This document shows positions 19,931 through 63,978 of a stretch of DNA of 64,000 nucleotides, piece by piece; position 1 is the stretch's first letter, and each line of letters starts with the position of its first letter. The translations under genes and the position numbers were made by a program. The DNA is from a virus. Its lineage: Duplodnaviria; Heunggongvirae; Uroviricota; Caudoviricetes. The notes under the pieces were generated by a model. The model worked only from the letters and a program-made list of their open reading frames with translations, was not told where the DNA came from and searched no databases. Location of the stretch: IMG/VR virus record IMGVR_UViG_2974644367_000001, positions 10,237 to 74,236 of that record; one strand, given 5' to 3'.

Positions 19931-19955
19931 GGGACTCTTCGGAGTCCTTTTTATT
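19931..19955 (+). terminator. Intrinsic terminator (GGACTC-UUCG-GAGTCC followed by T5)
   Basis: A perfect 6 bp stem, a UUCG tetraloop and a T-tract. Confidence 0.7.
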
Positions 19956-20012
19956 TGCATTTTTAAGATTGCGTGAGATAATTATTTATTGACCATGCAA
20001 GAGGATTATAAA

Positions 20013-21521
20013 ATGGCAACTTATAGACTTCAAGACTTGCCGGAATTCACAGGAACTATTTTAGGTACTGACCTTGTTCTTGTTAAGATTCTGGCGAGAG
20101 ATAGCACAGGCACTGATACTGATGCTAAAATGACAGTCACCAATTTCTTGAAAGGTGTCAGCTTCGATACGTCCAAGTTCCTGTTGAAAGGTGGAGACAT
20201 CTTCGCTGGTGATATGACGATGAACAACACCGTATCACTCAAAGGTCTGATGACAGGCTCTAAAGGGGCTGTAGGAATCGCTGTAGTCAATTCTAACGAC
20301 CAGTTGGTTGTAGGTGATGATAAGCTGCCACTTATTCTGAAGTCCCTTGAGAACCCCGCATATTTGCGTACAGACGGTACTCAGTTTTACCTGTACCATA
20401 CAGGGAATAAACCTTCTGCAACAGATATTGGTGCTGTCCCTACAACAAGAACTGTAAACGGTCATGCACTGAATACTAACGTGACTCTGGCAGCTTCTGA
20501 ACTTTCTGGTATTGACCTGTACATGCTCAAAGCAGACGGCTATACAAAAGTTTCTGGAGTTATGCAGGAACCATTGACTGTTAAGAACAACTCTTACTTG
20601 TCTGCACAGAAAGCTGATGGCTCTGCAAACGTTGGACTGATTAAGCTGAATGGTAGTAATAACCTTGAGATTGGTCAGACAGATACTTTCATGATTCTGT
20701 ACAGTAACAGTGACATTCAGGCTCAAATCAAAGGCTACAATCAGACCCTTCTCCACGATGGTAACTTCAGAACTTACATTAACCCTAATGAAAAGCTGAA
20801 AGCCTATGTGACCATGCAGGTGTTTGACACTGCGGGAACTTATACCATCACACCAGATGATTTATCAACAATGTTGAAATTCCGTGTGGAAGGTGAGAAT
20901 AAGTATGACTTCGAGGTTTCACTGTCAGCAATTACTGGTCACTACCAGACTGCGGCTGTTGCAAACACTTCAAGCTACGGTAATATCGTCGTTAGTGAAG
21001 CGCAAGAGTCAAATATTCTGGATGACAGGACAGGTAACGTTGTTAAGGCTGTTATTGCAGATGACGATGCAGGGTTCATTATTGGTTTCTGGAATGAGAC
21101 ATCTAAGAAGTCAGCGTTCAATTCAATTGCTTACCGTGCAGATGGTGACTTTAACGCAAGGATTGAAGATGCTGATGGTTGGTTGTGGTGGTGGATGCTG
21201 GACAACACGAACGGTACATGGGTGAACAAAACTATCACGCCAAGTGAAGGTACTTTGTCAGGCTACCAGCCAAACCATGAGAGTTCTGAAACCAGACCAA
21301 CTGCACCGAACTTAACAGGTGGTGTCTCTCAGGTCAACATCCTGTTTGACAGCAGTTCATCAACCAACTTGACATTCTCTTATTACTGTGTAAACACCCT
21401 TCCACCGAAGGATGCTACAAAGATTGAAGTCGTTGTTGGTGCATCTGGTTCAGTGTCTGCAAACAGTAATGTTACCGGACGTGTTGACCGTATCGTTGTA
21501 GAAGAGTTCGCAAGAATCTAA
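20013..21521 (+). CDS. Tail fibre protein (N-terminal anchor shared with the 21533 gene; C-terminal domain shared with the 22267 gene)
   Basis: It starts at MATYRLQDLPEFTG with a GAGGA ribosome-binding site. See the findings for the shared domains. Confidence 0.6.
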   Translation: MATYRLQDLPEFTGTILGTDLVLVKILARDSTGTDTDAKMTVTNFLKGVSFDTSKFLLKGGDIFAGDMTMNNTVSLKGLMTGSKGAVGIAVVNSNDQLVVGDDKLPLILKSLENPAYLRTDGTQFYLYHTGNKPSATDIGAVPTTRTVNGHALNTNVTLAASELSGIDLYMLKADGYTKVSGVMQEPLTVKNNSYLSAQKADGSANVGLIKLNGSNNLEIGQTDTFMILYSNSDIQAQIKGYNQTLLHDGNFRTYINPNEKLKAYVTMQVFDTAGTYTITPDDLSTMLKFRVEGENKYDFEVSLSAITGHYQTAAVANTSSYGNIVVSEAQESNILDDRTGNVVKAVIADDDAGFIIGFWNETSKKSAFNSIAYRADGDFNARIEDADGWLWWWMLDNTNGTWVNKTITPSEGTLSGYQPNHESSETRPTAPNLTGGVSQVNILFDSSSSTNLTFSYYCVNTLPPKDATKIEVVVGASGSVSANSNVTGRVDRIVVEEFARI

Positions 21522-21532
21522 GGAAAACTAAA

Positions 21533-22267
21533 ATGGCTACTACAAGTTACAGAATTCAAGACTTGAAGCAGTATACTGGCTCATTGTCAACTTCTGATTT
21601 CTTGTTAGTCAAGATTAAGAAGCGTACAGGTATGATTGGGGATGAGGATATGAAAATCTCCATGAACCTGTTCCTTGACCAACTGGCACAAGGGTTCTTC
21701 CCGATTACTGGTGGGGTTCTTAAAGGGAACCTCACTATTGCAAATGGTTATCTTCTTTCTCTTGCTGATAAGAATGATGTTGCAGTTTCTGTTGGTGGCT
21801 TCACCGCTGATAACAGACTTCAACTCGGTAACATCAACCGTGGATTGACTCTGGTGACAATCTCTGATGTCCAGATTAAACGTGGTGCTAACAGCTATGA
21901 AGTTTATCATGCTGGCAACCTCCCAAATGTTACCAAGATTGACAGTTATTACAATGCTGGATTTGTTGGGACAAGCCACTCAATCAACATGGGTCAGTAC
22001 ACTGATTACCAGATGACTTTACAGAATCCTACAACTGCGTTAGACTTCTCTTCAGGCTTTGTTAAAAGGGCTGTTGAGACAATCACAATGTTGATTACTC
22101 AGGGTTCTGGTTCAAACAAGGTCACTTGGCCTAGTAACATCAAATGGGCTAACGGATATGCACCCACCCTTTCATATAAGGCTGGTAAGACCGACATTAT
22201 CACATTCATCTCTTACGATTTGGGTGAGTCATGGTTAGGTCTGATGACAGCCGCTGGAGTAAGTTAA
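21533..22267 (+). CDS. Short tail fibre paralogue
   Basis: The N-terminus MATTSYRIQDLKQYTGSLSTSDFLLVKIKK is paralogous to the 20013 gene. Confidence 0.55.
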   Translation: MATTSYRIQDLKQYTGSLSTSDFLLVKIKKRTGMIGDEDMKISMNLFLDQLAQGFFPITGGVLKGNLTIANGYLLSLADKNDVAVSVGGFTADNRLQLGNINRGLTLVTISDVQIKRGANSYEVYHAGNLPNVTKIDSYYNAGFVGTSHSINMGQYTDYQMTLQNPTTALDFSSGFVKRAVETITMLITQGSGSNKVTWPSNIKWANGYAPTLSYKAGKTDIITFISYDLGESWLGLMTAAGVS

Positions 22268-25200
22268 TGACGCAAGTTAAACAGACGGCAGCACAGAGTG
22301 CTGTCAATCAAGCTGTGAATTTGCTGAACGGTCATGAAGATTTTGTAGAGCGTAGTACGGGTCTCACTGTAGACCCACATACTGACCACTACCTGCAAAA
22401 CCCTGATTTCGTTCTGTCAAACAACAGACATTTCATTGCAGACACTATGGCAGAATATCAGCCCAATGGTGACGCAACCACTGAGGGTCAGGCATTACAT
22501 GTCCTCGGTTACTGCCACGCATATATCGCAACAAAGAATCCTGTATTCCTTGACAAAGCGAAAAAGGCTTGGGATGCCTATATCAATTATTTCTACAAGG
22601 GTCAACCTGTACCAGATTTTCCATCTCGTTACATTTGTAACTGGATTATTAACGGTAAAGAGCCTGTCCTTGCGGATTATCCAGTAAACCCCGAAGAACC
22701 TACTCAGGGTGGCTATAAGTGTGTCCCTATCCAGTTCACTAACGGTGTTGGTCAGATTCCTCATGGTGCTCCTTTTTGGGGTGAATATCTCGACTCTTGT
22801 ACATTTGCTCACCGTGGTCACATGACATGGGATGCGATTAACGGCTCTGTTCAGGAGATTCAAGAGAACCTTGACGGGAAGATTGATTGGCAAACTGTTT
22901 TCGACCAGTACAGAATCCTTGGGACTCCAACCTATTCAGATTTGTTCTTAGACAACTTCACAGATGGACGTAATACTTGGACAGGCTTTACAAGCACGTC
23001 AGTTATCCCGACCGTTACAGGTGGTTGGATTAAACCTCCACGTGTTGATGACACAAACCCTGTTGGTATTCGTAAAGACGGTCTCTCTTTTGCAGGTGGA
23101 GATTATGAAACAGTTCGTCTGAGAGTTAAGAAGACGGGTTCTCCTGTTTGGGCTGGTGCTGTATGGTGGGTTCCTACTGATGGCAGAGGTTGGGATGTAA
23201 CCCGCAAGTTCTCTATCCCTGAGCCTAAGTTTGACTCATCCGGTGTTGCTGAGATTGCTGTGACTACTGGTTGGAACGTCAACATCCGTACAATGCGTAT
23301 TGACACTGGCGCACCATTGACTGCTGAAGAGTATGAGAAGAACTTCTTCGAGATTGACTACATCGGTGTAAGTCACAAAACTGGTGAAGGTATCGCAGAA
23401 CCTTGGTCATCTCTTGCGTGGATTGATTGGAAAGCGTATCTTGGTGACACTTACACTGTTAAATGGGGTGAGTCAAATCGAGCAAAAACCCTTCCAGTTC
23501 AATGGCTTGTCGTATGGACAAACAATAAAATTGGTATGGGGAAAGGCCCGAATGACCAGTTATGGGATGGTGACATTATCGAAGAAAATCTTCCAGACTC
23601 TGATAAAGGGATGATTAAACTCGAAGATGAGACTATCAACGGTGTATACTTAGTGAATTATGCTTCTAAAGTTCCTGTTGATTTTGGTGGGTATGAGTTC
23701 AAGAGAAATGAACCGTGGCATAACCGACCTGTACATACACCGTTCTTGGGTGGTATCAACCAGTTAGGTAACGCTGCTGATGCTGAAGTCTGGTTTGTAG
23801 ATGCTTGTTATCTTCTGTACAGAATTACTGGTGATGAGAAGTACAAGACTGCTTTAGAGAGTGTATTCTTCACTGCGAACGAATATACTGAGATTGACTC
23901 AACGGATAAATTCTTCCGTCAAAGTATGTCTGCTGAAACTCCATTTACGGATGCAATCAGCTACGGGTTCTCTTACCCTGCAAGTACGACTATCAACTAC
24001 AGTCGTGACTCTGAAGGTTACATTGTAATCAACACTGACCAAGCCTGTCAGACCTTCTTAGAGCAGCAAGCGGTTATCTTCCGTGTTACTGACAAGTCTA
24101 AGTTGAGATTGACTTATGGTGGTCAGACAGAAACTGGAAAGACTGTTGGCATGTCTGGAATCCTGACAATCGGCTCAACGAAAGGTGACACAGACTCTGA
24201 AAACAGGTACAAGGTAACTCTTCCAAAGACGAGTGATTCTACTCCAAAAGTCTATGACATTCCTCTTAGTCAGCTTGCGAAAGAGACTAATGATGAAACT
24301 GGTGAAGATTATCTGGTAGCCGACTCAAGAGCAGCAACCGACTATGGAAACTGTACTTGGGAAGAAGTCTACGAAGAAAATGTTTTCGATGGCCGTTCAG
24401 CAAACATCATCAAGGCAAAACTCCCAACATCTGATGACGGTTTCATTATCGGATTCTGGTTGACAGAAGAAGGTAAAGCTGACACAAAGTCTATCGTCTA
24501 CCGTGCTGATTCACCAATCACTGTACGCATGACTGATGACAATGAGTGGAACTGGAACTGGATTCTTGGCGAGACTTATGGTAAGTGGGTGAAGAGAACC
24601 CTTGACCCGAAAAACCTTACACTTGCTGAGAGACAGCCTAACCACACAGCAGAAGAGCCTTTACCAACTGAGGTTAAATATACCAAAGTTGAACAGTTGA
24701 ACTTCTCTCTGGAGGATGATACAGCAACTGACAAGGAATTCTCTTACTACTGCATCAACGATGTTCCACCACTGTTTGAAGGTGATGACGGTTGGACAGT
24801 TCTGTTCCGTGCGGCATTGAATGGTAGTGAAGCGTTTACGGCTGTTGTTGGTGATTGTACAATCATTGACTATCGTCACGACTCACTGGCGTACAGTCCC
24901 GGCGTTATTCCGTTCTCTAACATTTATGGTGAAGGTACGAACCAGATTGGTGCTTGGCACGGTATGCCATACCCAGGCTATCAATACCCGTTCATCTACA
25001 CAATTCATGTTTCAGAAAAATATGCAAATGAGCTTTCAAATCAGATTCAGTTCCTGTATGATAGCCAAGAAGCATATTACAATCAGGTCGGAATTTTGGG
25101 GCCAGGCTGTGCTGCATATATCTGGAACCGTTGGGATAACTACAAATATGGTAAGCCTGACACTTGGACAACGTATCATTGGGGTGACGGCAAGCCTTGG

Positions 25201-25740: not shown

Positions 25741-25788
25741 TGAGGTTGACAGAATAGACCTTCAATGTTAGTTTATTAAATGATGGAT

Positions 25789-25826
25789 AGCCCACTGAGA
25801 GTTTTCTTAGTGGGTTTTTTGTTATA
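25789..25826 (+). terminator. Intrinsic terminator after the tail fibre operon
   Basis: CCCACT..AGTGGG stem followed by TTTTTTG. Confidence 0.5.
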
Positions 25827-25851
25827 TCTAACCAACAACGAGGTAACGGTA

Positions 25852-26396: not shown

Positions 26397-26401
26397 TTAA
26401 T

Positions 26402-26430
26402 AGGCTCCTTTTTACGGGAGCCTTTTTTGT
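26402..26430. terminator. Bidirectional intrinsic terminator between convergent operons
   Basis: AGGCTCC..GGAGCCT stem flanked by A- and T-tracts. Confidence 0.55.
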
Positions 26431-29572: not shown

Positions 29573-29587
29573 CTTGTTTCCTTAGAG

Positions 29588-29612
29588 AAATAAAAGGACT
29601 CCGAAGAGTCCA
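29588..29612 (-). terminator. Intrinsic terminator (UUCG hairpin family), minus strand
   Basis: On the + strand this reads AAAAGGACTCCGAAGAGTCC, and on the minus strand it is GGACTC-TTCG-GAGTCC-TTTT. Confidence 0.65.
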
Positions 29613-29618
29613 GTAAGA

Positions 29619-29828
29619 TTAGAAGAAGAATGCTCGGAACAGCTTGTACAGGAATAGAACCATGTAACCTGCTGCGAGACCTTCAACGATACCGACAAGG
29701 ATAATAACCGTGTCTGATACGAAACGCAAGGGTCTTTCCGTTGCAAATTTCAGAATTTTAAAGCTATCGACAATGAGCCATAAAATACCGATAGCGATTG
29801 TTAGGCAAACCAGAATAGCACTAAGCAT
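29619..29828 (-). CDS. Small membrane protein (2 TM)
   Basis: A hydrophobic 69 aa ORF. Confidence 0.4.
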   Translation of the reverse strand: MLSAILVCLTIAIGILWLIVDSFKILKFATERPLRFVSDTVIILVGIVEGLAAGYMVLFLYKLFRAFFF

Positions 29829-31479: not shown

Positions 31480-31508
31480 AATTTAACAGTAATGGATTCT
31501 AAGGTCAA
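31480..31508 (-). promoter_or_regulatory. Sigma70-like promoter, minus strand (TTGACC-N17-TAAATT)
   Basis: Read on the reverse complement; it lies 25 nt upstream of the start at 31447. Confidence 0.4.
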
Positions 31509-31521
31509 GAAAAATATGCAA

Positions 31522-31546
31522 TAAAAAAGGACTCCGAAGAGTCCCT
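31522..31546 (-). terminator. Intrinsic terminator (UUCG hairpin family), minus strand
   Basis: AAAAAAGGACTCCGAAGAGTCCC on the + strand. Confidence 0.65.
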
Positions 31547-39506: not shown

Positions 39507-39526
39507 CTGATGTTATCTTACTAGCC

Positions 39527-39552
39527 CCTTAATTGGGGCTTTTTAGCCTATA
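39527..39552 (+). terminator. Intrinsic terminator
   Basis: AGCCCC-TTAATT-GGGGCT followed by TTTTT. Confidence 0.5.
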
Positions 39553-43484: not shown

Positions 43485-44558
43485 ATGGCTTTAACCGATG
43501 CTGAGAAGCATAGTAAATTCACCCTTTCAAAAATACCTGCCACAGTTAAGCTGGCATACTTTGACTCAGACCCTATCGCTTATCGTGGGGCATTTGCTGT
43601 TGAGAAGACTAAGTATCGCTTCACAAACTCTGAGACGTTTGAAGAGTCTCCACCATTCTTGAGTGCAAAAGATGCTAAGTCTTGGTTGGATGGTCAACAA
43701 GATATTGCAGAGTCAATTGGTATCGAGTTCCGTAAACAAGATTGGGTTCGTTATGATTGGAAAGAACCTTTGTCTGTTGAGGAAGCTATTAAGGCCACTC
43801 AGGATGTTCTACAGGCTTATATCAAGGCTTCTGGTGTCCATGAAGATGACTGGATGGGCTTCTTGACACAACGTGGTGTAGAGAAGACTAAAGACTTGAA
43901 AGGTCTTGAACACCAGTATCAGGGCAACCGTTCAGGCTTCACACCAACTCACCTTGACGCAACCAGACAACATCTGATTGACAAGTCACAGATGCACTTA
44001 CTGTCTGATGGATTTGAGGCTGATGCCGCTGTAATCGCAATGGGTGAACGTAAAGGTAAACGTGCTGTCATCTTATCACTTGACAAAGACCTTCGTCAGT
44101 TGATGGGTGGTTACATGCTTGACATGTCCTATGACAAGGCTCCGCTCATCTTCAATACCGTTGATAACCCACTTGGTGACGTTTGGCGATGCCCTATCAA
44201 GTCAAAACCTAAACAACCTCCGAAGTATGTTGGTTGTGGTTTTAAATGGCTCTGTTATCAGGCTCTGGCTGGAGACCCTTCAGACGGCTACTATGGTATC
44301 TCTGGAGTTGGTGGTGCTGCGATTATCAAACTCCTTGATGAATGTGAGACTATTCACCAGTGCTTAGACGCAATCTATGCCCTCTACAAGAAGAAGTTCC
44401 CTGAAGGGTACACATATACCTCATGGGACGGTGTAGAGACTCACAGGACGCCTGAAGAGCTTATGACACAGCATTTCATGTTGCCTTATCAGGAGCGTAG
44501 CATGGACGATGTATTTACCTTTGAAAAATATGATTGGAGTTTTAACATGAATGGATAA
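43485..44558 (+). CDS. 5'-3' exonuclease / flap endonuclease (FEN, T7 gp6/T5 D15-like)
   Basis: The PIN-like LSLDKDLRQL motif and the H3TH GISGVGGAAIIK motif. Confidence 0.75.
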   Translation: MALTDAEKHSKFTLSKIPATVKLAYFDSDPIAYRGAFAVEKTKYRFTNSETFEESPPFLSAKDAKSWLDGQQDIAESIGIEFRKQDWVRYDWKEPLSVEEAIKATQDVLQAYIKASGVHEDDWMGFLTQRGVEKTKDLKGLEHQYQGNRSGFTPTHLDATRQHLIDKSQMHLLSDGFEADAAVIAMGERKGKRAVILSLDKDLRQLMGGYMLDMSYDKAPLIFNTVDNPLGDVWRCPIKSKPKQPPKYVGCGFKWLCYQALAGDPSDGYYGISGVGGAAIIKLLDECETIHQCLDAIYALYKKKFPEGYTYTSWDGVETHRTPEELMTQHFMLPYQERSMDDVFTFEKYDWSFNMNG

Positions 44559-45066
44559 GCTGCCACGTTACGCACATTGGGTGTCTCTCTGCGGAGAGAT
44601 TAACCCTGAAAAACTTTTCGGTTTTGTCTATGTGGTCTACAATAAAGCCCATAACAGATTTTACATCGGAAAGAAACAATTCTTTTCAGTTACTAAGAAA
44701 AAGATTGTTGGAAAAGTTCGAAGAAAGACTTGCATCAAGGATTCAGATTGGTTAAGATACTTCACATCTTCTGAGTACGTTAAGAAAGATATTGAAGAGC
44801 TTGGGTTAGACAACTTTGAGTTCTATATCATCGAAACGTATGAGACTAAATCGGGTCTGGTCTACGCTGAAGCTAACCTTCAACATAAGTTTGATGTGAT
44901 GCAAAAAAGTGTTGACTCTGATACTCGCAAGTTTTACAATGCAAATGTCGCTGCTATCAAGTTCCTCGTAAAAGAGATTAAGCCTGTAGCAGCAAAACGA
45001 ATTAAACAACTAATTGAATATAAAGAGGCTCACCATGTTCGCAATTCTGAAAAAACTGTTCTCTGA
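44551..45066 (+). CDS. GIY-YIG nuclease
   Basis: GFVYVVYN...RFYIGK GIY-YIG motif. Confidence 0.6.
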   Translation: MDKLPRYAHWVSLCGEINPEKLFGFVYVVYNKAHNRFYIGKKQFFSVTKKKIVGKVRRKTCIKDSDWLRYFTSSEYVKKDIEELGLDNFEFYIIETYETKSGLVYAEANLQHKFDVMQKSVDSDTRKFYNANVAAIKFLVKEIKPVAAKRIKQLIEYKEAHHVRNSEKTVL

Positions 45067-46627: not shown

Positions 46628-46633
46628 TCACAA

Positions 46634-46655
46634 GGGACTCTTCGGAGTCCTTTTT
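46634..46655 (+). terminator. Intrinsic terminator (UUCG hairpin family)
   Basis: GGGACTCTTCGGAGTCCTTTTT. Confidence 0.7.
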
Positions 46656-46671
46656 AATCTGGAATGAAATA

Positions 46672-46764
46672 ATGAATAAGACAATCCTCGCTGTAATGGT
46701 TCCCCTCCTGATTCAATATCAGATTCTGAGCAACAAATTCAAAGCACAACTTGAGGCTAAATAA
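46672..46764 (+). CDS. Possible 30 aa hydrophobic leader peptide whose stop overlaps the nrdA start (TAATG)
   Basis: MNKTILAVMVPLLIQYQILSNKFKAQLEAK. The ribosome-binding site is weak. Confidence 0.2.
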   Translation: MNKTILAVMVPLLIQYQILSNKFKAQLEAK

Positions 46765-50914: not shown

Positions 50915-50921
50915 TAATCAA

Positions 50922-50944
50922 GGGACTCTTCGGAGTCCTTTTTC
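50922..50944 (+). terminator. Intrinsic terminator (UUCG hairpin family)
   Basis: GGGACTCTTCGGAGTCCTTTTT. Confidence 0.7.
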
Positions 50945-50955
50945 TTTATATAAAA

Positions 50956-51025
50956 CAACAACTTATAAATAAATGAAAAATTATTGAAAATAGTTGTTGA
51001 CCCGAATAACCGATTTCTATACTAT
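50956..51025 (+). promoter_or_regulatory. Sigma70-like promoter (TTGACC 50997 - TATACT) flanked by an 8 bp inverted repeat CAACAACT / AGTTGTTG
   Basis: The right arm of the palindrome overlaps the -35. Confidence 0.5.
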
Positions 51026-52185: not shown

Positions 52186-52203
52186 TCTGTAGCTATCCTA
52201 ATC

Positions 52204-52227
52204 GGGACTCTTCGGAGTCCCTTTTTA
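52204..52227 (+). terminator. Intrinsic terminator (UUCG hairpin family)
   Basis: GGGACTCTTCGGAGTCCCTTTTT. Confidence 0.7.
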
Positions 52228-52239
52228 TTTGAGGTGAAT

Positions 52240-52618: not shown

Positions 52619-52627
52619 TTACTATGA

Positions 52628-52650
52628 GGACTCTTAATTGAGTCCTTTTT
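52628..52650 (+). terminator. Intrinsic terminator (variant of the family: GGACTC-TTAATT-GAGTCC followed by T5)
   Basis: Same stem with a different loop. Confidence 0.65.
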
Positions 52651-52666
52651 AGTTTCTGGAGAATGT

Positions 52667-56140: not shown

Positions 56141-56148
56141 TTTATAAA

Positions 56149-56171
56149 GGGACTCTTCGGAGTCCTTTTTT
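56149..56171 (+). terminator. Intrinsic terminator (UUCG hairpin family)
   Basis: GGGACTCTTCGGAGTCCTTTTTT. Confidence 0.7.
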
Positions 56172-56181
56172 ATTTTATCTG

Positions 56182-56210
56182 TTGACATCACCACACCAAA
56201 TGAATTAAAG
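56182..56210 (+). promoter_or_regulatory. Sigma70-like promoter (TTGACA-N17/18-TAAAGT)
   Basis: Strong -35 element. It is followed by the shared leader motif at 56226..56242. Confidence 0.45.
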
Positions 56211-56249
56211 TAATCACATCGAAAGCAAACAACTAACTGAGGAAATATC

Positions 56250-56711
56250 ATGAATCGTCGCATCACTGCCGTATCAAAAGACTTCTACAATCGTCGCATG
56301 GGTGAACTGGTAAAGCAATTCCCTAACGTGTTTAACAAGTCTCTTCCTATGCCGCTGGCGATTGGTGTTCACAAGACTCTGGCAGAGCAGACTGAGTTTT
56401 CTCGCAAAGAAATCAATGCGATGTTATCAGTGTGGACTCGTCGCCATGAGTATGTTTGTGCAGCCGTTACTCACGGTTTCCGTGTAGACCTGAACGGCGA
56501 GTTCGTTGAAGAAATCTCAGAAGAACATCTGTATGGGTTTAGCCGTGCATTTGATAATCTGACCAAGAAGCAAAAGGCTGGCTTTACTCGCCGCTGGAAC
56601 CGTGCTGATACCACTGACCAGTTCGTATGTGAACCATTCGAGTGCTACGTTGAAGCGAAGGTTGAAGAGCCTGTGGAAACCGAAGAGGTATGTCAAGAAT
56701 GCCTGATTTAA
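56250..56711 (+). CDS. FinO/ProQ-domain RNA-binding protein with a C-terminal Cys4 cluster
   Basis: It aligns to the E. coli ProQ N-terminal domain. Shared features are FPxxF, PLAIGV, the SxxEIxxxLxxWT pattern, RVDLNGE and EEHLYG. Confidence 0.7.
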   Translation: MNRRITAVSKDFYNRRMGELVKQFPNVFNKSLPMPLAIGVHKTLAEQTEFSRKEINAMLSVWTRRHEYVCAAVTHGFRVDLNGEFVEEISEEHLYGFSRAFDNLTKKQKAGFTRRWNRADTTDQFVCEPFECYVEAKVEEPVETEEVCQECLI

Positions 56712-57289: not shown

Positions 57290-59740
57290 ATGAAAATGAA
57301 TTACGAACATCAAGCAGTCCAGAAAAGTTCTAATACTCTGGAGACTACTCAGGCACAGATTATGATGACACCTGAGATGCTTGACCTGCTTTCTTCTGGT
57401 GTTTATGAGTATAAGGCACGTGCAGTTATCCGTGAATTATCTTGTAATGCACTTGATGGTCACATGGTAAAAGGCAATGTCGATGAACCATTTGACATTC
57501 ACTTACCAACCACCTTCGAACCTTACTTTGAGATTCGTGATAAAGGTGTCGGTCTGTCCCATGAAGCAATCATGAACATGTACCTGAACTATGGTGCTTC
57601 GACGAAGAACAATTCGAATGACTTCATCGGTGCTATGGGTATCGGTTCAAAGTCTCCGTTTGCTATCTCTGATTCGTTCACTGTCCGTTCATACTTTGAG
57701 GGTAAGGTAACGACTTATCAGGCATACAAAGAGAACGGTATCCCTAACCTAACTAAGCTGATGGAAAAGCCAATGGCAGAGGGTGAGGAAACTGGTCTGG
57801 CTGTTCGTGTAGCTGTTCGTCAGGAGTTGACTGATGAGTTTCGTCGTGAAGCTGCTTACGTCTTTGAAACGTTTGCTGTGCGACCTAACATCAACATTGA
57901 CATAAACTATATTGACCGTAACTCTATGGTTATGTCTGAGAAAGCTGGCGTCTACACAGCATTTCACGGCACAGGGAACTCTTACAGTCGTCGTGGTGAC
58001 AACTTCCTATATGTGGTGATGGGGTCTATCCGTTATCCTGTCAAGCTGGAAGCGGTGATGTCTGATGATGAGATGTCAGCTATCAACAACAGTCCTATGA
58101 TTGATTCTATCGGCTGTCTGTGGGTCTACGTCCCAATTGGTTCAGTGTCCATCTCTGCGAGTCGTGAATCACTCCAGATGAATGAGTCAACCAAGAAGTT
58201 TATTCTGGATGCCTTTAAAGACATCTCGTCTGACTTCATGGCAGACCTTCAGAAAGGTTTTGATGACATTGACGACTACTGGAAAGCTGGTCATCATTGG
58301 GTTAACCTGAAAAGCAAGCTGCGTAGTCACAGCCAGATTGCATACTTTGCCAAGAACTTGACTTGGAAAGGTAAGCAGATTTCTCGTCTGGTTGAAGAGG
58401 CTGATGCAGCCCGTCTGGTTCCTCGCCTTGATGAGTTTGGCAATCAGATGTACAAAAAGGATTCTTCCGGTCAGCCTCTGGAACTGAACGGTCAGAAAGT
58501 GCCTTTGATGATGAACTACGAAGCATATTGCTATCGCTGGAACAACCTTACTTCAACATCGTCTTGGGCGAAACGTGAGCGTTGGACTAAGAACAACCTT
58601 GAAACAGACATGGCTAAGGTCTCTCCTTGGAAGACTACCAATGACTTCTTCAATGGTGTATTGTTCTTTGTCTATGACCGTATCACCCGTTCAGGTACTG
58701 AGAAGACAACTGGTAAAGAGCAAGTGTTGCGTGGTATGGGCTTTGCTTTCCAAGAGTCCACTAAAAACAACTTGAACTACCTGTGCATGGTTGACTCTCG
58801 CGCTGAGGCAGAGATTATCTGGAACCGTCACAAAGTACCAGAAGACCAACGTCACTTCGACATGGCTTCTAAGTATGAAGACTGCTACACCCCTGCAAAG
58901 CGTCAGAAAGGTGTGGTGAAGTTATGGGTTCACAGTTATGCAGAGTATCACAAGAAACAAAATATTGGTGATTACCGTAACGGGTTTATCAATACTGGTT
59001 ACGTGAACTCTGAAGAGTTTAAGGTTGACTTGTCTGTTCTTCAGGACGATGAGAATGAACACCTGTACCTTCAGTCAAACAACAACGTAATCACTAACGG
59101 TGTGTTTAACGGTAAAGGTGCAACTGATGTTGCCAAACTGATTGCACCGTTAATCACTGGTAAGATTGTGGTGTTTAACAAGGCCAACTGGAAAAAGATT
59201 CCCGAAGATTGGGAGAATGCCAGTGATGAAAACGTTCTGCGTAAACTGATTGACAAACATCCTCGACTCTGGAAAGCTATGAACCAGTCGATGATTGAGT
59301 CTGCTATGCCAGACCGCTTTAAGCGTCTTGCAGCGATGGGTGTTGCTCTGCCAAACAGTAATGATTACTTTGGTCAGTCTATGCGTGGTCGTGTTCTGAA
59401 GTGGGAAGGTGCAAGACAGGTTCTTGAACAAATCTTGAATAAGCCTTGCTATTCGATTCCACAGATGGTACAGTCTTGCTCAGTCAGTCACAGCAACATC
59501 CTTGGTTCCATTTACAAGATGCTGCCACACTGTAAGCTGCATACTTCCATCAAGAAAGCGCGTCAGCGTATGGAAGCAGATATTGAGAAGAACAAAAACA
59601 ACCTGTTCAACTCTAAATATAAAGTGCTGAAGTTTATTGACTTCAACCGTGTGCAACTGTTAGAATTAGCCGAAGCACTTGACATCAACTTTGACAGAAC
59701 GTATGTTAACGATGATGGTGTAAGATTCTACAACCATTAA
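57290..59740 (+). CDS. rIIA: rIIA-like protein (N-terminal GHKL/Bergerat ATPase domain)
   Basis: GHKL motifs ELSCNALDGH, IRDKGVGL and GAMGIGSKS. 816 aa. It lies immediately upstream of rIIB. Confidence 0.65.
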   Translation: MKMNYEHQAVQKSSNTLETTQAQIMMTPEMLDLLSSGVYEYKARAVIRELSCNALDGHMVKGNVDEPFDIHLPTTFEPYFEIRDKGVGLSHEAIMNMYLNYGASTKNNSNDFIGAMGIGSKSPFAISDSFTVRSYFEGKVTTYQAYKENGIPNLTKLMEKPMAEGEETGLAVRVAVRQELTDEFRREAAYVFETFAVRPNINIDINYIDRNSMVMSEKAGVYTAFHGTGNSYSRRGDNFLYVVMGSIRYPVKLEAVMSDDEMSAINNSPMIDSIGCLWVYVPIGSVSISASRESLQMNESTKKFILDAFKDISSDFMADLQKGFDDIDDYWKAGHHWVNLKSKLRSHSQIAYFAKNLTWKGKQISRLVEEADAARLVPRLDEFGNQMYKKDSSGQPLELNGQKVPLMMNYEAYCYRWNNLTSTSSWAKRERWTKNNLETDMAKVSPWKTTNDFFNGVLFFVYDRITRSGTEKTTGKEQVLRGMGFAFQESTKNNLNYLCMVDSRAEAEIIWNRHKVPEDQRHFDMASKYEDCYTPAKRQKGVVKLWVHSYAEYHKKQNIGDYRNGFINTGYVNSEEFKVDLSVLQDDENEHLYLQSNNNVITNGVFNGKGATDVAKLIAPLITGKIVVFNKANWKKIPEDWENASDENVLRKLIDKHPRLWKAMNQSMIESAMPDRFKRLAAMGVALPNSNDYFGQSMRGRVLKWEGARQVLEQILNKPCYSIPQMVQSCSVSHSNILGSIYKMLPHCKLHTSIKKARQRMEADIEKNKNNLFNSKYKVLKFIDFNRVQLLELAEALDINFDRTYVNDDGVRFYNH

Positions 59741-59748
59741 TACAAACG

Positions 59749-59770
59749 GGGCTGGAAACAGCCCTTCTTA
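59749..59770 (+). terminator. GAAA-tetraloop hairpin (attenuator or weak terminator) between rIIA and rIIB
   Basis: GGGCTG-GAAA-CAGCCC followed by TTCTT. Confidence 0.35.
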
Positions 59771-59792
59771 AACGAAGTGAAGGAAACCTAAA

Positions 59793-60920
59793 ATGACTAT
59801 GACTAAAGCTCAGATTGATGCTCAGATTTTCGCAGATGTTTCTAACGGTATGACCAAAGCAGCAGCCGCTGAAAAATATGGTACGTCTGCCCGTTCCATC
59901 GGTCGTGCGATTGAGCGTCATGAGAAGTCTGGCGGTAAAGCCCCTGCCAAAGCCGCTGTAAAGCCCGCTAAGGCGACTTCTAAGAAGTCTGGTAAGAAGG
60001 CTAAGTCAACTGCCAAAGCCGCTCCTAAGCGTTCTGACGTGGCTAAAGCTGCACCTTACAAGCCAGAAGAAAAGACTCAGGTAGCCAGTACCGTGCTGGA
60101 AGCACTGGAGAAAGGTGATAAAGTTGAGTACATCAACACGTCATCATCTGTTGTTCTGACTCTGAACGGTGAATCAGAGATTGTTGAAGAAACTCATCCG
60201 AACTTCAAAGCAATTCAGATTGCTATTGTTTCAGGCGACTTCAAACAAGCGTTTGCTCTGATGAACATTCGTAAGTCCATTGAGAACTTCACTCAGGGGG
60301 CAATCACCATCAAAGGTGACAAACTGTTCTACGGTACTATTGAAATCCGTTCAACGATTGCACAGCGTATTCTGGAACTGATGCGTCAGGGTGATGATGG
60401 CTTTAAAACTCTGGTCAGCTTCTTCGAAAAACTGATGGAGAACCCATCACGCAACTCTGTTGAACAGCTTTGGGGCTTCATCTCTCACAACGACATTGAG
60501 ATTGACTCTGAAGGTTATATCATCGGTTGGAAGCGTGTTCGTAACAACGGTAACGGTCTGGTTGATAGCCGCACCAGCAAAGTTCCTAACAACATTGGTA
60601 ACATCGTGTCAATGCCTCGCTGGATGGTTGACGCAGACAAAAACGTTACCTGTTCACAGGGTCTGCATGTTGGCGCTTGGGATTACGTCCGTTCATTCTC
60701 TGGCGATACCACTATCAAGGTTCGTGTCCATCCACGTGACGTTGTATCTGTACCAACAGACTACAATGACCAGAAGATGCGTTCTTGCCAGTATGAAGTT
60801 GTCGGTGTGGTTGACAGCAACCGTAAAATCATCGACGTGACCAACCTGAAAGGTCTGGCTACAGAAGTGGTTGTTGTCGGCTCTGCTGGTGAACTGATTT
60901 CCCGTAAACCACGTGTCTAA
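59793..60920 (+). CDS. rIIB: rIIB protein
   Basis: The C-terminal block RVHPRDVVSVPTDYNDQKMRSCQYEVV matches T4 rIIB KVHPRDVVSIPIDYNDAKMRTCQYEVV. The N-terminal HTH and a Lys/Ala-rich linker are also present. Confidence 0.85.
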   Translation: MTMTKAQIDAQIFADVSNGMTKAAAAEKYGTSARSIGRAIERHEKSGGKAPAKAAVKPAKATSKKSGKKAKSTAKAAPKRSDVAKAAPYKPEEKTQVASTVLEALEKGDKVEYINTSSSVVLTLNGESEIVEETHPNFKAIQIAIVSGDFKQAFALMNIRKSIENFTQGAITIKGDKLFYGTIEIRSTIAQRILELMRQGDDGFKTLVSFFEKLMENPSRNSVEQLWGFISHNDIEIDSEGYIIGWKRVRNNGNGLVDSRTSKVPNNIGNIVSMPRWMVDADKNVTCSQGLHVGAWDYVRSFSGDTTIKVRVHPRDVVSVPTDYNDQKMRSCQYEVVGVVDSNRKIIDVTNLKGLATEVVVVGSAGELISRKPRV

Positions 60921-60927
60921 ATGAATT

Positions 60928-60946
60928 GGGGCGAAAGCCCCTCTTC
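60928..60946 (+). terminator. Intrinsic terminator (GGGGC-GAAA-GCCCC followed by TCTTCT)
   Basis: Hairpin right after the rIIB stop codon. Confidence 0.45.
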
Positions 60947-60960
60947 TAAGAGGAATTGAA

Positions 60961-61203
60961 ATGTACTATCTGATTGTTGTGCTGTCCTATCTCGTTGCGA
61001 TACTGACTTGGCCTGTTGCGATTGTCAAGTTCCTGTATGAAATCTTCAAACTCGATGTACCGTTCTGGTCATCACTGATTTCGAATGGCCTTGGTGGTGT
61101 GGTAATCTTCATCATTGCAGTTGTGTTCATCATCCTCTTCGGACGATTGCAATTTGAGAAATCATCAAAGAAACTCTTGTCACGCACTAACCGTTGGCAT
61201 TAA
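60961..61203 (+). CDS. Small membrane protein (2 TM)
   Basis: Hydrophobic 80 aa. Confidence 0.45.
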   Translation: MYYLIVVLSYLVAILTWPVAIVKFLYEIFKLDVPFWSSLISNGLGGVVIFIIAVVFIILFGRLQFEKSSKKLLSRTNRWH

Positions 61204-61208
61204 ACTAT

Positions 61209-61232
61209 AGGGACTCTTCGGAGTCCTTTTTT
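61209..61232 (+). terminator. Intrinsic terminator (UUCG hairpin family)
   Basis: GGGACTCTTCGGAGTCCTTTTTT. Confidence 0.7.
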
Positions 61233-61246
61233 ATTTGGAGGAAAGT

Positions 61247-61816
61247 ATGATTGAGTTTAGAGAGGGTAAGCCAAAAGCGATGGGGCTTTACCTTTGCAAA
61301 GTTAACCCTGAACCTATAACGCTTCCGGTTGCTGATAACCAGATTCTGTTCTTTCAGGAAGGTGATTGGTGGTGGCCTCGTTCAGATGCACGTTACCGTG
61401 ACCATGTTTATCTTTGGGCTGGCCCGATTCAGGTTTTGAAACTGGAAGAAACCATTCAGGAAACAACTGTGCATAACTTCTACCACATTGGCAAGAAGAT
61501 TCCAGATGGTTACGTGTACATTGGAAGGGCTGGACAGGGCTTGAAAGAACACCCGCTACATAACCCTTTCAAGATAACAGATAAGTGTGACCGTGATACT
61601 GTGATACGGAAGTATGAAAGTTATCTCTGGCGTGGTATGAACAATGGGACTATTGACCCTGCACTAATTCTTTCTCTTGACGGAAAGAAACTGGTCTGTT
61701 ACTGTTCACCTCACAAATGCCACGGTGATGTTATCGTTAAAGCTATCGAGTGGCTTAAAACAGACGACAACTACCAAAAGATGAAGGAGAAGTACGATGC
61801 GAATAGACAAAGATAA
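61247..61816 (+). CDS. DUF4326-like protein (HNP motif and CYCxPxxCHGD cluster); track start is TTG at 61235
   Basis: EHPLHNPF and LVCYCSPHKCHGD in the C-terminal half. GGAGGAAAG ribosome-binding site. Confidence 0.5.
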   Translation: MIEFREGKPKAMGLYLCKVNPEPITLPVADNQILFFQEGDWWWPRSDARYRDHVYLWAGPIQVLKLEETIQETTVHNFYHIGKKIPDGYVYIGRAGQGLKEHPLHNPFKITDKCDRDTVIRKYESYLWRGMNNGTIDPALILSLDGKKLVCYCSPHKCHGDVIVKAIEWLKTDDNYQKMKEKYDANRQR

Positions 61817-62000
61817 AGCAGTCCTTGATGACGAAGGTTGTGTGAAATCATTCACCCTCTTAGTCGGTGGTAAAGACTTCTTCTGTAACTGTGGCTGCAA
61901 CTGTTTCCACAAACCTGACAGGAATGACTTGTCTGTTTACTCATGCAATGGTTGCCACAAAACGTACAAGAGGGTAGACCAACCACGAAAAGTGTGTTAG
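61797..62000 (+). CDS. Cys-rich zinc-binding small protein
   Basis: CNCGCNC ... CNGCH. Confidence 0.4.
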   Translation: MRIDKDKAVLDDEGCVKSFTLLVGGKDFFCNCGCNCFHKPDRNDLSVYSCNGCHKTYKRVDQPRKVC

Positions 62001-62039
62001 CATGTGTCTTCGTTTAACTATAAACAGGCAAGAAAGAGA

Positions 62040-62552
62040 ATGCTGAAACAACTTATCCTTGTTGGGGCGCTCTGTATTACACCGTTTGGAGTTAAAGCAG
62101 TAGACTGTCCAGAGTTCTCTCAGGGTCAGGTTGCAGTTTTAAAAAAGGCTCACGCCTATGGTTCACATAACATGGGTGGTAATTGGGGAGTGGTCTTAGC
62201 GGCCATTTCCTATCAAGAATCCAGTGCTGGCGATAAGGTTGTCAATCACAAAGGTTCTTATGGTGTTTTCCAGAATAAGCTCACAACGGTAACTAACAGG
62301 ACTGGTGAAAAACCAGCAGTTGCCAAAAAGAAACTTATTCATAGTTTCGATTATTCCGCTGAACAAGCCAAGAATGAACTTGACTATTGGAACGGCAGAT
62401 ATTACCTTAAAACAGGACAATCAAACAACCTAACACGTGTTCTGGCTTCGTACAATGCAGGTTACAATGTATCGGCTGGCAAAGGCTATGCCAAACAGGT
62501 AAAGCAAAAGATGAAGATTGTAGAGCACTGTATCATTAACAAAGAGGATTAA
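62040..62552 (+). CDS. Lytic transglycosylase (SLT-domain) lysin with an N-terminal signal/SAR sequence (track start is GTG at 62004)
   Basis: A signal peptide MLKQLILVGALCITPFGVKA, then SYQESSAG...GSYGVFQ in an SLT catalytic-Glu context. Confidence 0.6.
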   Translation: MLKQLILVGALCITPFGVKAVDCPEFSQGQVAVLKKAHAYGSHNMGGNWGVVLAAISYQESSAGDKVVNHKGSYGVFQNKLTTVTNRTGEKPAVAKKKLIHSFDYSAEQAKNELDYWNGRYYLKTGQSNNLTRVLASYNAGYNVSAGKGYAKQVKQKMKIVEHCIINKED

Positions 62553-62554
62553 TC

Positions 62555-63208
62555 ATGATTCAGCAGACTTGTAAAGTCGCAGTACGTTCACGTCTTGATT
62601 CAGTATATCAAGCGGCAATCTGTGATATTCACCACAGCAACTTATCTGGAAAGGTTCGTATCTGGAAAGAGGGTGAAGCTCCAGAGTTGTCAGAGGAAGA
62701 GGTGTTCATGAACCAGTTGGCTATCCTTCCTGAAAAGATGCCAGAAGGTTATGACAAGAAGCCTAAAGCAATCGTTGTTGATATTGATGGTGTTGTCACC
62801 CATTTTGACGATGAAGGCACTCTGCTTATTACTGGTGAACGGGAACCATATTGGCAGAATCACATGACCATTGCAGAGATGGCTCATGAGCAAGGTATTA
62901 TTGTAGACCTCGTTAAGGGTCGTGTTGAGAAAGGTGATACCTTAATCTTCCTGACTGCACGTGGAGAGTCACAACGTATCTCAACAACGATGACACTGAA
63001 CAATGTGTTCAATCCATACAAGTATCACCTGTTCATGCGTGGCTTGTTTGATAACCTGACACCTGCACACATTCTGAAGCGTGACATCTTGCACACCTGC
63101 ATTATGCCATACTATGATGTGGAATTGTTTATTGATGATACTGCCTTGAATATCCAGCAGATTAATCAGGATTTTCCTGAAATCAAAACAATGCTGTATC
63201 ATTCGTAA
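62555..63208 (+). CDS. HAD-superfamily phosphatase (nucleotidase-like)
   Basis: HAD motif I VVDIDGVVT, motif II LTARGE and motif IV FIDDT. Confidence 0.5.
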   Translation: MIQQTCKVAVRSRLDSVYQAAICDIHHSNLSGKVRIWKEGEAPELSEEEVFMNQLAILPEKMPEGYDKKPKAIVVDIDGVVTHFDDEGTLLITGEREPYWQNHMTIAEMAHEQGIIVDLVKGRVEKGDTLIFLTARGESQRISTTMTLNNVFNPYKYHLFMRGLFDNLTPAHILKRDILHTCIMPYYDVELFIDDTALNIQQINQDFPEIKTMLYHS

Positions 63209-63215
63209 AAAGTAG

Positions 63216-63245
63216 TTGACGCCACTCTGAGAAGGGTGGCATAAT
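63216..63245 (+). promoter_or_regulatory. Sigma70-like promoter (TTGACG-N17/18-TGgCATAAT) with an internal GCCAC..GTGGC dyad
   Basis: It is followed by the shared leader motif at 63264..63282. Confidence 0.5.
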
Positions 63246-63288
63246 CTCTCCTGTCAAGACGACAAACAACTAACTAAGAGGCTTTATC

Positions 63289-63756
63289 ATGATTCAGGAA
63301 ACTATCGTAGTAAACATCAATGACCTGTCAAGCAAAGTGGCATACGTTGCTGATGTTGTAAAAGCTCAGTTCTCAGGCCGTATTTTCCGTGCTGTCAACG
63401 TAAAGAAAGATGGTGCGCTCCGTGAATACCGTGCTCTGACTGGTGTTTCCAAGCATGTAAAAGGTGCTGGTTCAACAACCGCACACAAACCTGAACTGCT
63501 GACCATCTATGACATGGGTCTGGCTTCAACTCTCGGTGCAGAGGGTATTCAGGCCGCTGGCGCTCCTTACCGTTCATTCAACATGGAAACAACTCTGATG
63601 CTGGAGTTTGTAAAGGGCGACAAGAAAACTACTTACGTCTTCATCGACGAAGCAACTAAATCTGAAATTGCTGATGCGAAAATCAAAGCTGCTGTTGACG
63701 CAAGCTCAAGCATTACCAATCAGTCTGTTGCAATCCTGCTTGGTGCTCTGAAATGA
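63289..63756 (+). CDS. Hypothetical protein
   Basis: First ORF after the promoter. Confidence 0.45.
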   Translation: MIQETIVVNINDLSSKVAYVADVVKAQFSGRIFRAVNVKKDGALREYRALTGVSKHVKGAGSTTAHKPELLTIYDMGLASTLGAEGIQAAGAPYRSFNMETTLMLEFVKGDKKTTYVFIDEATKSEIADAKIKAAVDASSSITNQSVAILLGALK

Positions 63757-63947
63757 GTAGCCTGATTCAGGACTTTGACGACCTTCTGTCTCATCTCAAC
63801 TCTGAAGAGAATGACATGGCCTTGGCATTACGCCAAAAGTTGTGTGACCATCTTGAAGAGCAGGATGAAAGACTTGAAAAGTTGGATGCACTGGAAGCAC
63901 ACGGTGTTGACAATTGGGAAGGTTACGATTTGGCGATGAGCAGCTAA
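63753..63947 (+). CDS. Small acidic protein
   Basis: ORF coupled to the previous gene. Confidence 0.4.
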   Translation: MSSLIQDFDDLLSHLNSEENDMALALRQKLCDHLEEQDERLEKLDALEAHGVDNWEGYDLAMSS

Positions 63948-63955
63948 TCAATCAA

Positions 63956-63978
63956 GGGACTCTTCGGAGTCCTTTTTA
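63956..63978 (+). terminator. Intrinsic terminator (UUCG hairpin family)
   Basis: GGGACTCTTCGGAGTCCTTTTT. Confidence 0.7.

Follow-up and report, generated by a model that had tools for sequence, protein, structure and literature searches.

Repeated terminator stem-loops have been described in lytic phages before: the PeSLs of T4-type phages are repeated intergenic, terminator-bearing cassettes through which indels arise and modules are exchanged (Arbiol et al. 2010, PMC2839356; Comeau et al. 2014, PMC4122927). The exceptionally stable C(UUCG)G tetraloop was first noticed in the mRNA of phage T4, a discovery by Tuerk et al. 1988 as recounted in PMC4371310. Here we analysed a hairpin with this loop, GGACTC-TTCG-GAGTCC followed by a T-tract, which recurs in a window of 64,000 nucleotides (nt), positions 10,237 to 74,236 of the IMG/VR virus record IMGVR_UViG_2974644367_000001; the window corresponds, at 100% identity, to positions 10237-74236 of the record of Erwinia phage vB_EamM-M7 (hereafter M7), a member of the genus Kolesnikvirus in the subfamily Ounavirinae. 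The T4 hairpins, which are reportedly intercistronic and are said to have heterogeneous stems, share with the M7 repeat the same C-G-closed UUCG tetraloop in the mRNA of a virulent enterobacterial phage, but 12 of the M7 copies agree in stem and loop alike. T7 and T3 have about ten related gene-boundary hairpins, their RNase III sites, which leave stable 3' stem-loops on the mRNAs; these are long irregular duplexes which are cleaved, whereas the M7 stems are 6-10 base pairs (bp) long and carry a U-tract. The DNA-uptake-sequence inverted repeats of Neisseria and Haemophilus double as terminators and, as in M7, place one short exact sequence in many terminator stems of one genome. There the sequence is favoured by a process other than termination; for M7 we know of no uptake-like or other process that reads a sequence, nor of any sign of one.

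The exact 16-mer GGACTCTTCGGAGTCC was found nine times in the window, starting at 19932(+), 29596(-), 31529(-), 46635(+), 50923(+), 52205(+), 56150(+), 61211(+) and 63957(+), which we number copies 1 to 9 in this order. The expected number of matches is 0.00 and none occurred in 100 dinucleotide-preserving shuffles of the window. A gapped-pattern search added the loop variant GGACTC-TTAATT-GAGTCC at 52628. An earlier reading of the sequence alone (the original prediction) had described one hairpin used ten times, including this variant, and its count stands; it had picked out the right objects, with coordinates that were shifted by 1-8 nt, mostly for the minus-strand copies. The genome-wide count of the 16-mer, which it had proposed as a check, gave 12 exact copies in the complete 84.7-kb M7 genome, or 13 with the TTAATT variant, and no sequences one to three substitutions away from the 16-mer were found there. 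In our own scan M7 has 27 intergenic terminator-like sites, 13 belonging to the GGACTC family and the rest being heterogeneous, and the GGACTC hairpin is predicted to close about half of the M7 transcription units. Phage phiEa21-4, a sister species with ~88% identity to M7, has the same 12 + 1 copies, and 11 of the 12 exact ones carry a "terminator" feature in its GenBank record, so the terminators themselves are not new; the M7 record has no terminator annotation. No Rfam family matched anywhere in the window, and the 16-mer was not found in the literature searched, which did not cover the genome papers of phiEa21-4 (Lehman 2009) and M7 (Born 2011).

The anatomy of the repeat is that of an intrinsic terminator. 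All 13 copies are co-oriented with their flanking genes, lie 3' of a coding region and combine a stem-loop with at least four U in the sense orientation. The core lies 5-9 nt past the stop codon, except for the copy after gp078 (19 nt), and TTTT(T) stands directly 3' of every copy, with a single C ahead of the T run in one of them. The conserved unit comprises only AG, the 16-mer and TTTTT(T)ATTT, with no shared information outside positions -3 to +10. The 6-bp core stem is lengthened to 7-10 bp by flanking A/G and U, and the ten copies in the window fold as the predicted hairpin (-9.9 to -16 kcal/mol, z-scores -2.2 to -5.4). A C(UUCG)G tetraloop with its C-G closing pair caps 12 of the 13 copies, confirming the hyper-stable loop which had been proposed, and the thirteenth has the TTAATT hexaloop. 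The GGACTC repeats are thus very probably Rho-independent terminators or attenuators, as the original prediction held, a function we infer from the G+C-rich stem, the U-tract, the position just past stop codons, the sense orientation and the annotation in phiEa21-4. In this mechanism RNA polymerase would transcribe the 6-bp G+C-rich stem (7-10 bp with its flanks), the C(UUCG)G cap and 4-6 U; the tetraloop would nucleate the hairpin fast while the polymerase stands on a weak rU:dA hybrid, and the transcript would be released. The hairpin left at the 3' end of the mRNA would then shield it against 3' exonucleases. The hairpin is also a compact candidate terminator part, one which is naturally validated.

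About ten similar hairpins at gene boundaries also resemble the R-sites of T7, and the repeats might instead be processing sites, that is, endoribonuclease targets and not terminators. The 3' arm contains GGAG, the motif of T4 RegB, and homologues of gp093 (62040-62552, +) are labelled "putative T4 endoribonuclease RegB" in two other Kolesnikvirus records, Pistou and Rouille. RNase III, however, needs ~20 bp, about two turns of double-stranded RNA, and no copy has such an irregular duplex, the stems of 6-10 bp being far under that length. In addition, the GGAG is base-paired, gp093 has no RegB domain in Pfam but only a weak match to the SLT transglycosylase family (E 1.2e-4), and processing would leave the U-tract unexplained. 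We consider this explanation hardly credible.

The copies differ in what lies downstream of them. In five of the 13, a spacer of at least 63 nt follows which holds a sigma-70-like promoter match (at 19954, 31508(-), 46738 (weak), 50997 and 56182), and for these the statement that each copy sits exactly at an operon boundary fits. It does not fit the other eight, where a Shine-Dalgarno sequence and the next start codon lie 17-26 nt past the stem; these close-spaced copies precede DNA ligase, gp079, gp081, gp091 and gp096 in the window, and the endolysin, gp006 and spanin genes outside it. As 17-26 nt is too short for a promoter, the downstream genes would have to be reached by read-through, which would make these eight copies leaky intra-operon attenuators. 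The family is best described as a mixture of five predicted transcription-unit boundaries and eight putative internal attenuators, of which the leaky copies would grade expression along the long co-directional gene arrays. How transcription passes the many terminators of phage Felix O1 was called an open question by the authors who described them (PMC3185647). With the 13 sites and their division into boundaries and attenuators, a phage group which is used against fire blight gains a better transcription map.

We compared the M7 sites with the hairpins of Felix O1 (Table 2 of Whichard et al. 2010, PMC3185647, and annotation) and of Citrobacter phage Mijalis (GenBank annotation). Both phages have terminators at the same gene junctions as M7, formed by other hairpins, most of which are common to the two. 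In both, GGCTCC-TTCG-GGAGCC stands after the endolysin gene and before the spanin gene; GGCTGC-TTCG-GC(G/A)GCC after rIIB (t2 of Felix O1; the junction of M7 copy 8); GGTCTC-TTCG-GAGACC, one base-pair flip from GGACTC, after the glutaredoxin block (t116 of Felix O1; copy 5); GGGAAC-TGTAAA-GGTTCCC before the gp081 homologue, the junction of the TTAATT variant; and a 24-nt hairpin after the gp098 homologue. Before nrdA (copy 4) Felix O1 has GAGCCTC-TTCG-GAGGCTC and Mijalis GGGTCTC-TTCG-GAGACCC. For the junction after the tail fibre gene (copy 1) the hairpin compared was GGGGGCTGTACAGCCCTC of Felix O1, and for that after nadV (copy 7) GGCTCC-TACT-GGAGCC of Mijalis. M7 has the GGACTC hairpin at all nine of these junctions, in the form of the TTAATT variant before gp081. 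The terminators of Felix O1 and Mijalis are therefore like those of M7 in their junctions, their short G+C stem, their frequent C(UUCG)G loop and their T-tract with ATTT; they differ in that they comprise at least seven hairpins of which at most two are identical, while M7 uses one throughout.

The same contrast was seen when one scanner was run on nine genomes for identical terminator cores. Four Kolesnikvirus genomes each had 12 identical cores among 32-38 terminator-like hairpins, against at most two among 24-26 in Felix O1 and Mijalis and no repeated cores in the unrelated phages Salmonella 7-11, ECBP2 and LAh_8 (23-30 candidates across these five non-Kolesnikvirus genomes). Within this nine-genome sample, the uniformity is as unusual as had been claimed. 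At the junction before nrdA, 38 IMG/VR loci represent three genera and three stem alleles with 100% of cells paired; two of the seven pairs are changed on both sides, the other two alleles being the Felix-like GAGCCTC and the Moogle-like GGGTCTC. This compensatory pairing, seen in a small sample of seven distinct sequences, is a pattern of apparent selection on the hairpin and not on its sequence. As far as sequence comparison goes, these results show that the terminator positions are ancestral to the Ounavirinae and that the uniform sequence is limited to Kolesnikvirus; regulatory elements have kept their positions while their sequence turned uniform in one genus.

The hairpin sequence as such is not peculiar to these phages. 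The exact 20-mer with its T-tract was found in a single copy each in more than 120 bacterial genomes of many phyla and in at least 119 IMG/VR contigs, multi-copy contigs being rare, among the matches listed in both cases. Such single copies across unrelated bacteria point to a generic, repeatedly invented terminator sequence. A host origin or mimicry of the hairpin was rejected, as there was no Erwinia among the ~80 of the 120+ matches looked at and the single copies are spread over many phyla. The many separate origins of the 20-mer do lend something to the idea that each M7 site independently converged on a single best terminator sequence. The sister genera, though, use equally or more stable stems at the same junctions (GGCTCC -10.8 and GAGCCUC -12.0 kcal/mol), no such convergence was seen in the five other phage genomes, and it would be very improbable for twelve sites to reach the same 16-mer separately when many are equivalent, so we regard independent convergence as highly improbable. 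Avoidance of restriction sites, considered as a cause of the switch from GGTCTC to GGACTC, was also rejected: GGTCTC, GTCTC, GAGTC and GANTC are neither depleted nor enriched beyond the hairpins.

Within the genus we examined five complete genomes (M7, phiEa21-4, SE5, SeKF_13 and Prophecy) and six partial ones (phiEa104, Omen, phi63_307, Coenus, Pistou and Rouille). In these 11 Kolesnikvirus genomes, 88-100% identical, 107 copies stand at orthologous junctions; the five complete genomes agree in the number and the places of their copies, and each junction which could be read in the six partial ones holds a copy. Across 1260 pairwise comparisons of core positions no difference was seen, whereas the flanks of 25 nt diverge by 14-21%. 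A single change was found in the 107 copies, in the post-tail-fibre copy of Prophecy (PP869456.1, 31039-31054, GGGCTCTTCGGAGTCC; the orthologue of 19932), where A3 is replaced by G and an A-U pair thereby becomes a G·U wobble. The TTAATT variant is unchanged in 10 of the 10 Kolesnikvirus genomes in which that junction was read. Since the same 12 + 1 set stands at orthologous junctions, the family was complete in the ancestor of the genus, and the original suggestion of a recent spread by recombination has to be abandoned, most of the junctions having had a terminator already in Felix O1 and Mijalis. The strict identity over 12-13 sites is genuine, genus-specific and old; in other respects these are ordinary terminators, and the practical value of the observation is modest.

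Another reading takes the repeat as a site in duplex DNA whose terminator-like shape is secondary, with the 6-4-6 inverted repeat serving as an operator or roadblock for a dimeric protein or as a nuclease or packaging signal. The centres of the GGACTC and GAGTCC half-sites lie 10 bp apart, a typical operator geometry, and the stem sequence is kept even in the loop variant. Against this, all 13 copies follow transcription with a 3' T-tract which a symmetric DNA site would not need, the UUCG loop, relevant to RNA and not to duplex DNA, is strictly conserved, the other genera keep pairing and not sequence at orthologous sites, and no candidate DNA-binding protein was identified. A DNA-level role of this kind seems to us very improbable. 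As the stems of the sister lineages drift by compensatory change on the same time scale, 12 identical copies are not passive retention, and their identity reflects either active homogenisation on the Kolesnikvirus stem branch or a constraint on the exact sequence.

Our preferred reading is that a family of terminators and attenuators was made uniform by concerted evolution and has since been held by purifying selection, and as a whole we consider it probable. For the cause of the uniformity taken separately, namely concerted evolution in the Kolesnikvirus ancestor followed by strong purifying selection, we see an even chance. In the stem lineage of the genus, cUUCGg terminators which were short and already alike would have exchanged sequence by ectopic gene conversion or recombination, with additional duplication as gene modules were inserted at terminators; purifying selection would then have frozen the result, since a 6-bp stem with a UUCG loop is minimal and may have no positions to spare. 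Each of the five ancestral terminators with a 6-bp stem and cUUCGg loop has a GGACTC copy as its M7 counterpart, and the five already have GG...C-TTCG-G...CC-TTTTT in common, a match of at least 20 of 26 nt. Non-family terminators remain recognisably conserved, as in the TTAATT hairpin ahead of the dNMP kinase gene and the bidirectional terminator GGCTCC-TTTTTAC-GGGAGCC at the convergent junction of gp044 and thymidylate synthase (26402-26423); the latter is almost unchanged in Felix O1 (t79/t80) and Mijalis and so appears to have escaped homogenisation. The hairpins after the tube gene and before the exonuclease gene also lie outside the family, and their sequence has diverged. Structurally different terminators thus seem largely to have escaped. 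Mini-families of two identical terminators exist in both Felix O1 and Mijalis, and the stems which these phages carry before nrdA differ from each other in several pairs together, a pattern suggestive of replacement and not of stepwise drift. The comparison with these two phages makes concerted evolution of terminators testable.

The gene content between copies is also of interest for this reading. Several blocks which stand between two copies are genus-specific or relocated: the endolysin gene, gp050 with the CCA-adding enzyme, gp078, gp079-080 and gp096-098. In M7, gp097-gp098 (gp096-gp098 = 63992-65218) sit between two copies beside the spanin gene, while their weak homologues lie downstream of the endolysin gene in Felix O1 (16642-17567) and Mijalis, the block being bounded by terminators in both arrangements. 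The weak homologues of gp097 and gp098 in Felix O1 are ORF31 and ORF30 (pairwise BLASTP, E 2e-9 and 9e-9), located 3' of the endolysin terminator, which has the same sequence as the pre-spanin terminator of that phage. A tblastn search of gp096-098 against Felix O1 and Mijalis gave no matches, and since the homology was seen by pairwise BLASTP only, the relocated module gives the argument moderate support.

Several points weigh against concerted evolution. With 16-28 nt, the identical unit offers little length for homologous recombination, and the TTAATT variant joins a foreign loop of 6 nt to the exact stem of the family, which a single simple conversion tract would not yield. The copies show no enrichment of breakpoints or indels, so that ongoing recombination at these sites is not visible within the genus. 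Among the three genera Kolesnikvirus stands apart (capsid identity at least 95% within and at most 66% outside it; NrdA identity 97% within against 56-57% outside), and no lineage intermediate between it and the Felix-like phages was found among GenBank phages (by capsid) or in IMG/VR (by NrdA), for which reason parsimony cannot polarise a heterogeneous against a uniform ancestor. Finally, the literature yielded neither a transcriptome nor Term-seq data for Kolesnikvirus or Felix O1, so termination and its efficiency are inferred.

If recombination were still acting, the copies could be mobile cassettes like PeSLs, shuffling gene modules inside phage genomes and between them, and kept identical through continual copying. 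The two kinds of element are alike in being repeated intergenic terminator stem-loops of a lytic phage, proposed to be homogenised or spread by recombination and bracketing exchangeable modules, and the genus-specific or relocated blocks bracketed by two copies in M7 would fit. The PeSLs of Arbiol et al. 2010 (PMC2839356) and Comeau et al. 2014 (PMC4122927), however, consist of a strong sigma-70 promoter and a stem-loop, number ~50 per genome with variable sequence, and are concentrated in hyperplastic regions and demonstrably tied to indels which separate close relatives. In M7 the repeats are hairpin-only, exactly identical and placed at conserved junctions: the unit ends ~10 nt past the stem, the promoter is not in the repeat, a promoter-like site lies near only 5 of the 13 copies, and the other 8 have no room for one. 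Number and positions are constant in the five complete genomes and at all junctions read in the six partial ones, and there is no homology past ~28 nt and there are no target-site duplications. With no similarity beyond -2 to +10 and the same positions in 11 genomes, the repeats also do not behave like transposable elements, be they miniature inverted-repeat (MITE) or repetitive extragenic palindromic (REP)-like.

An alignment of M7, phiEa21-4, SE5 and SeKF_13, four genomes with correspondingly limited power, bears on the same question. One topology switch falls exactly at the copy after gp078 and one 206-nt indel abuts a copy, but neither breakpoints nor indels are in excess at the copies. 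Hairpins as recombination hot spots of the genus were rejected, with two of the 22 topology switches having a copy in their breakpoint interval against 2.0 expected. Hairpins as indel hot spots were rejected likewise: of 14 indels measuring 30 nt or more, a single one adjoins a copy (P = 0.25). The insertions which differ between genomes are homing-endonuclease genes without hairpins. Taken together, we regard mobile cassettes as a doubtful explanation of the uniformity. The alignment itself is of some interest: the four genomes are strongly mosaic, the best-supported four-taxon topology switching ~22 times, and M7 groups with SE5 over ~30 kb of the replication and nucleotide-metabolism region and not elsewhere. 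The insertions varying between the four are mostly HNH homing-endonuclease genes. The 206-nt segment, which contains an open reading frame of 64 amino acids (aa), is missing from SE5, SeKF_13 and Prophecy, and the indel adjoins the 5' side of copy 9 in SE5 and SeKF_13.

FinO domains bind intrinsic terminators, recognising the base of the hairpin, at least four 3' U and an A-rich 5' flank (PMC7367173, PMC9674577, PMC12001967), and ProQ shields 3' ends from poly(A) polymerase-dependent decay (PMC12086684). The original prediction had named a ProQ-like protein as a possible reader of the hairpin, and such a protein exists: gp085 (56250..56711, +), unnamed in the M7 record, has 153 aa and matches PF04352 (E 7.7e-19), which makes it an RNA-binding protein of the ProQ/FinO-domain type. 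Among solved structures the FinO domain of Legionella RocC (7RGU), determined in complex with a terminator, is the closest, and gp085 keeps the TRRxEY and RVDLxG motifs aligned with RocC. The copies resemble the FinO/ProQ ligands FinP, RocR, malM-3' and cspE-3' in having a terminator hairpin, a tail of at least four U and an A-rich 5' flank (T at +2 to +4 in 13 of 13, A at -2 in 10 and at -4 in 9 of the 13), and the M7 genome itself encodes a FinO-domain protein; they differ in that known FinO domains do not read the stem sequence, and that the M7 case is known from sequence alone. With copies that fit the description of a FinO ligand and gp085 present across the genus, binding of phage terminators by gp085 is plausible, and we regard it as a candidate binder of terminator 3' ends.

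It is another matter whether this could account for the uniformity. A phage factor, most obviously gp085, might bind the hairpin and U-tail, stabilise mRNA or tune read-through, and have co-evolved with one ligand. The protein is encoded in all Kolesnikvirus records and, among the three genera, is restricted to Kolesnikvirus; Felix O1 and Mijalis lack it and have heterogeneous terminators. Also in favour of this model, the stem and not the loop is kept in the TTAATT variant. Homologues of gp085 also occur in unrelated phages (Salmonella 7-11/SE131, ECBP2/SU7-like, Aeromonas LAh_8 and Shewanella KASIA), and three ProQ-encoding phages, Salmonella 7-11, ECBP2 and LAh_8, have no repeated cores. 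As such phages have heterogeneous terminators, gp085 does not explain the uniformity, and we rejected a ProQ-like gene as a general correlate of uniform terminators, the cores of all three being unique. Further, the association in Kolesnikvirus comes from a single lineage, FinO recognition depends in the cited work on structure and flanks and not on stem sequence, the sole natural variant is a change in the stem, to G·U, and gp085 appears frameshifted in SeKF_13, where the hairpins are intact. We therefore think that recognition by gp085 is unlikely to be behind the identity of the copies. The broader notion of a common recognition element fared no better, given the heterogeneous ProQ phages, the pair-preserving G·U variant and stems which are too short for RNase III, and nothing found requires a recognition role.

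A system of phage-encoded mRNA 3'-end control in Kolesnikvirus, in which gp085 co-evolved with a standard terminator of GGACUC stem and U-tail, is in our view improbable. If it did exist, about half of the phage transcription units would end in the same high-affinity ligand, and the stability or read-through of phage mRNAs (endolysin, ligase, spanin) could be set without relying on host ProQ, Hfq, poly(A) polymerase and exonucleases. The presence of gp085 in the same genomes as the repeat offers a simple experimental entry to the role of phage-encoded FinO proteins.

The copies with a promoter-like site downstream, in each case from a consensus scan only, are located as follows. Copy 1 (19930..19956, core 19932-19947, +; -11.4 kcal/mol) lies 5 nt past the stop of the tail-fibre gene gp039, with the next gene 63 nt on and a site TTTGCA-17-GATAAT with TG at 19954..19982 (+); phiEa21-4 has a terminator annotation at the orthologous site, and Felix O1 has a different hairpin, t76, at this junction. 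Copy 3 (31519..31546, core 31529-31544, -; -13.4 kcal/mol), also annotated in phiEa21-4, is 9 nt past the lipoprotein gene gp051 and is followed by TTGACC-17-TAAATT with TG at 31480..31508 (-) and by gp050, 81 nt on. Copy 4 (46633..46659, core 46635-46650, +) stands 7 nt past gp072, with nrdA 113 nt on and a weak sigma-70-like match at 46738, and copy 5 (50921..50947, core 50923-50938, +) stands 8 nt past gp077, with TTGACC-17-TACTAT at 50997..51025 (+) and gp078 137 nt on. Copy 7 (56148..56175, core 56150-56165, +; -13.3 kcal/mol) is 9 nt past nadV, and TTGACA-18-TAAAGT at 56182..56211 (+) separates it from gp085, 84 nt on.

The close-spaced copies in the window comprise four exact ones and the loop variant. 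Copy 2 (29586..29613, core 29596-29611, -; -9.9 kcal/mol) lies 7 nt past the stop of a 69-aa open reading frame, with the DNA ligase start 23 nt downstream, and is an annotated terminator in phiEa21-4. Copy 6 (52203..52230, core 52205-52220, +) has a 7-bp stem through a G-C extension (-13.4 kcal/mol) and lies 19 nt past gp078 and 19 nt ahead of the gp079 start. The loop variant (52626..52654, core 52628-52645, +; -16 kcal/mol) is 9 nt past gp080, with the start of gp081 21 nt downstream. Copy 8 (61209..61235, core 61211-61226, +) is 7 nt past gp090 and has the gp091 start 20 nt downstream, and copy 9 (63955..63981, core 63957-63972, +) is 9 nt past the 64-aa open reading frame and has the gp096 start 19 nt on.

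Several neighbouring features deserve mention. The TTAATT hexaloop is found in two otherwise unrelated terminators, the loop variant at 52628-52645 and the terminator at 39523-39540, which has an AGCCCC/GGGGCT stem ahead of the dNMP kinase gene and whose Mijalis orthologue also has TTAATT. The 69-aa open reading frame upstream of copy 2 (29619-29828, -) is unannotated in M7 and annotated in SE5, SeKF_13 and Prophecy, and the 64-aa one upstream of copy 9 (63753-63947, +), unannotated in M7 as well, is named "putative RecBCD inhibitor" in Pistou and Rouille. The product of gp091 (61247-61816, +), annotated as "ribonucleotide reductase NrdA-like", had DUF4326 as its sole match (PF14216, E 3.3e-18). 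Lastly, gp068 (44551-45066, +), a "NAD synthetase" in RefSeq, matches the SegE-type GIY-YIG endonuclease domain PF19835 (E 2.5e-28) and is probably a misnamed homing endonuclease.

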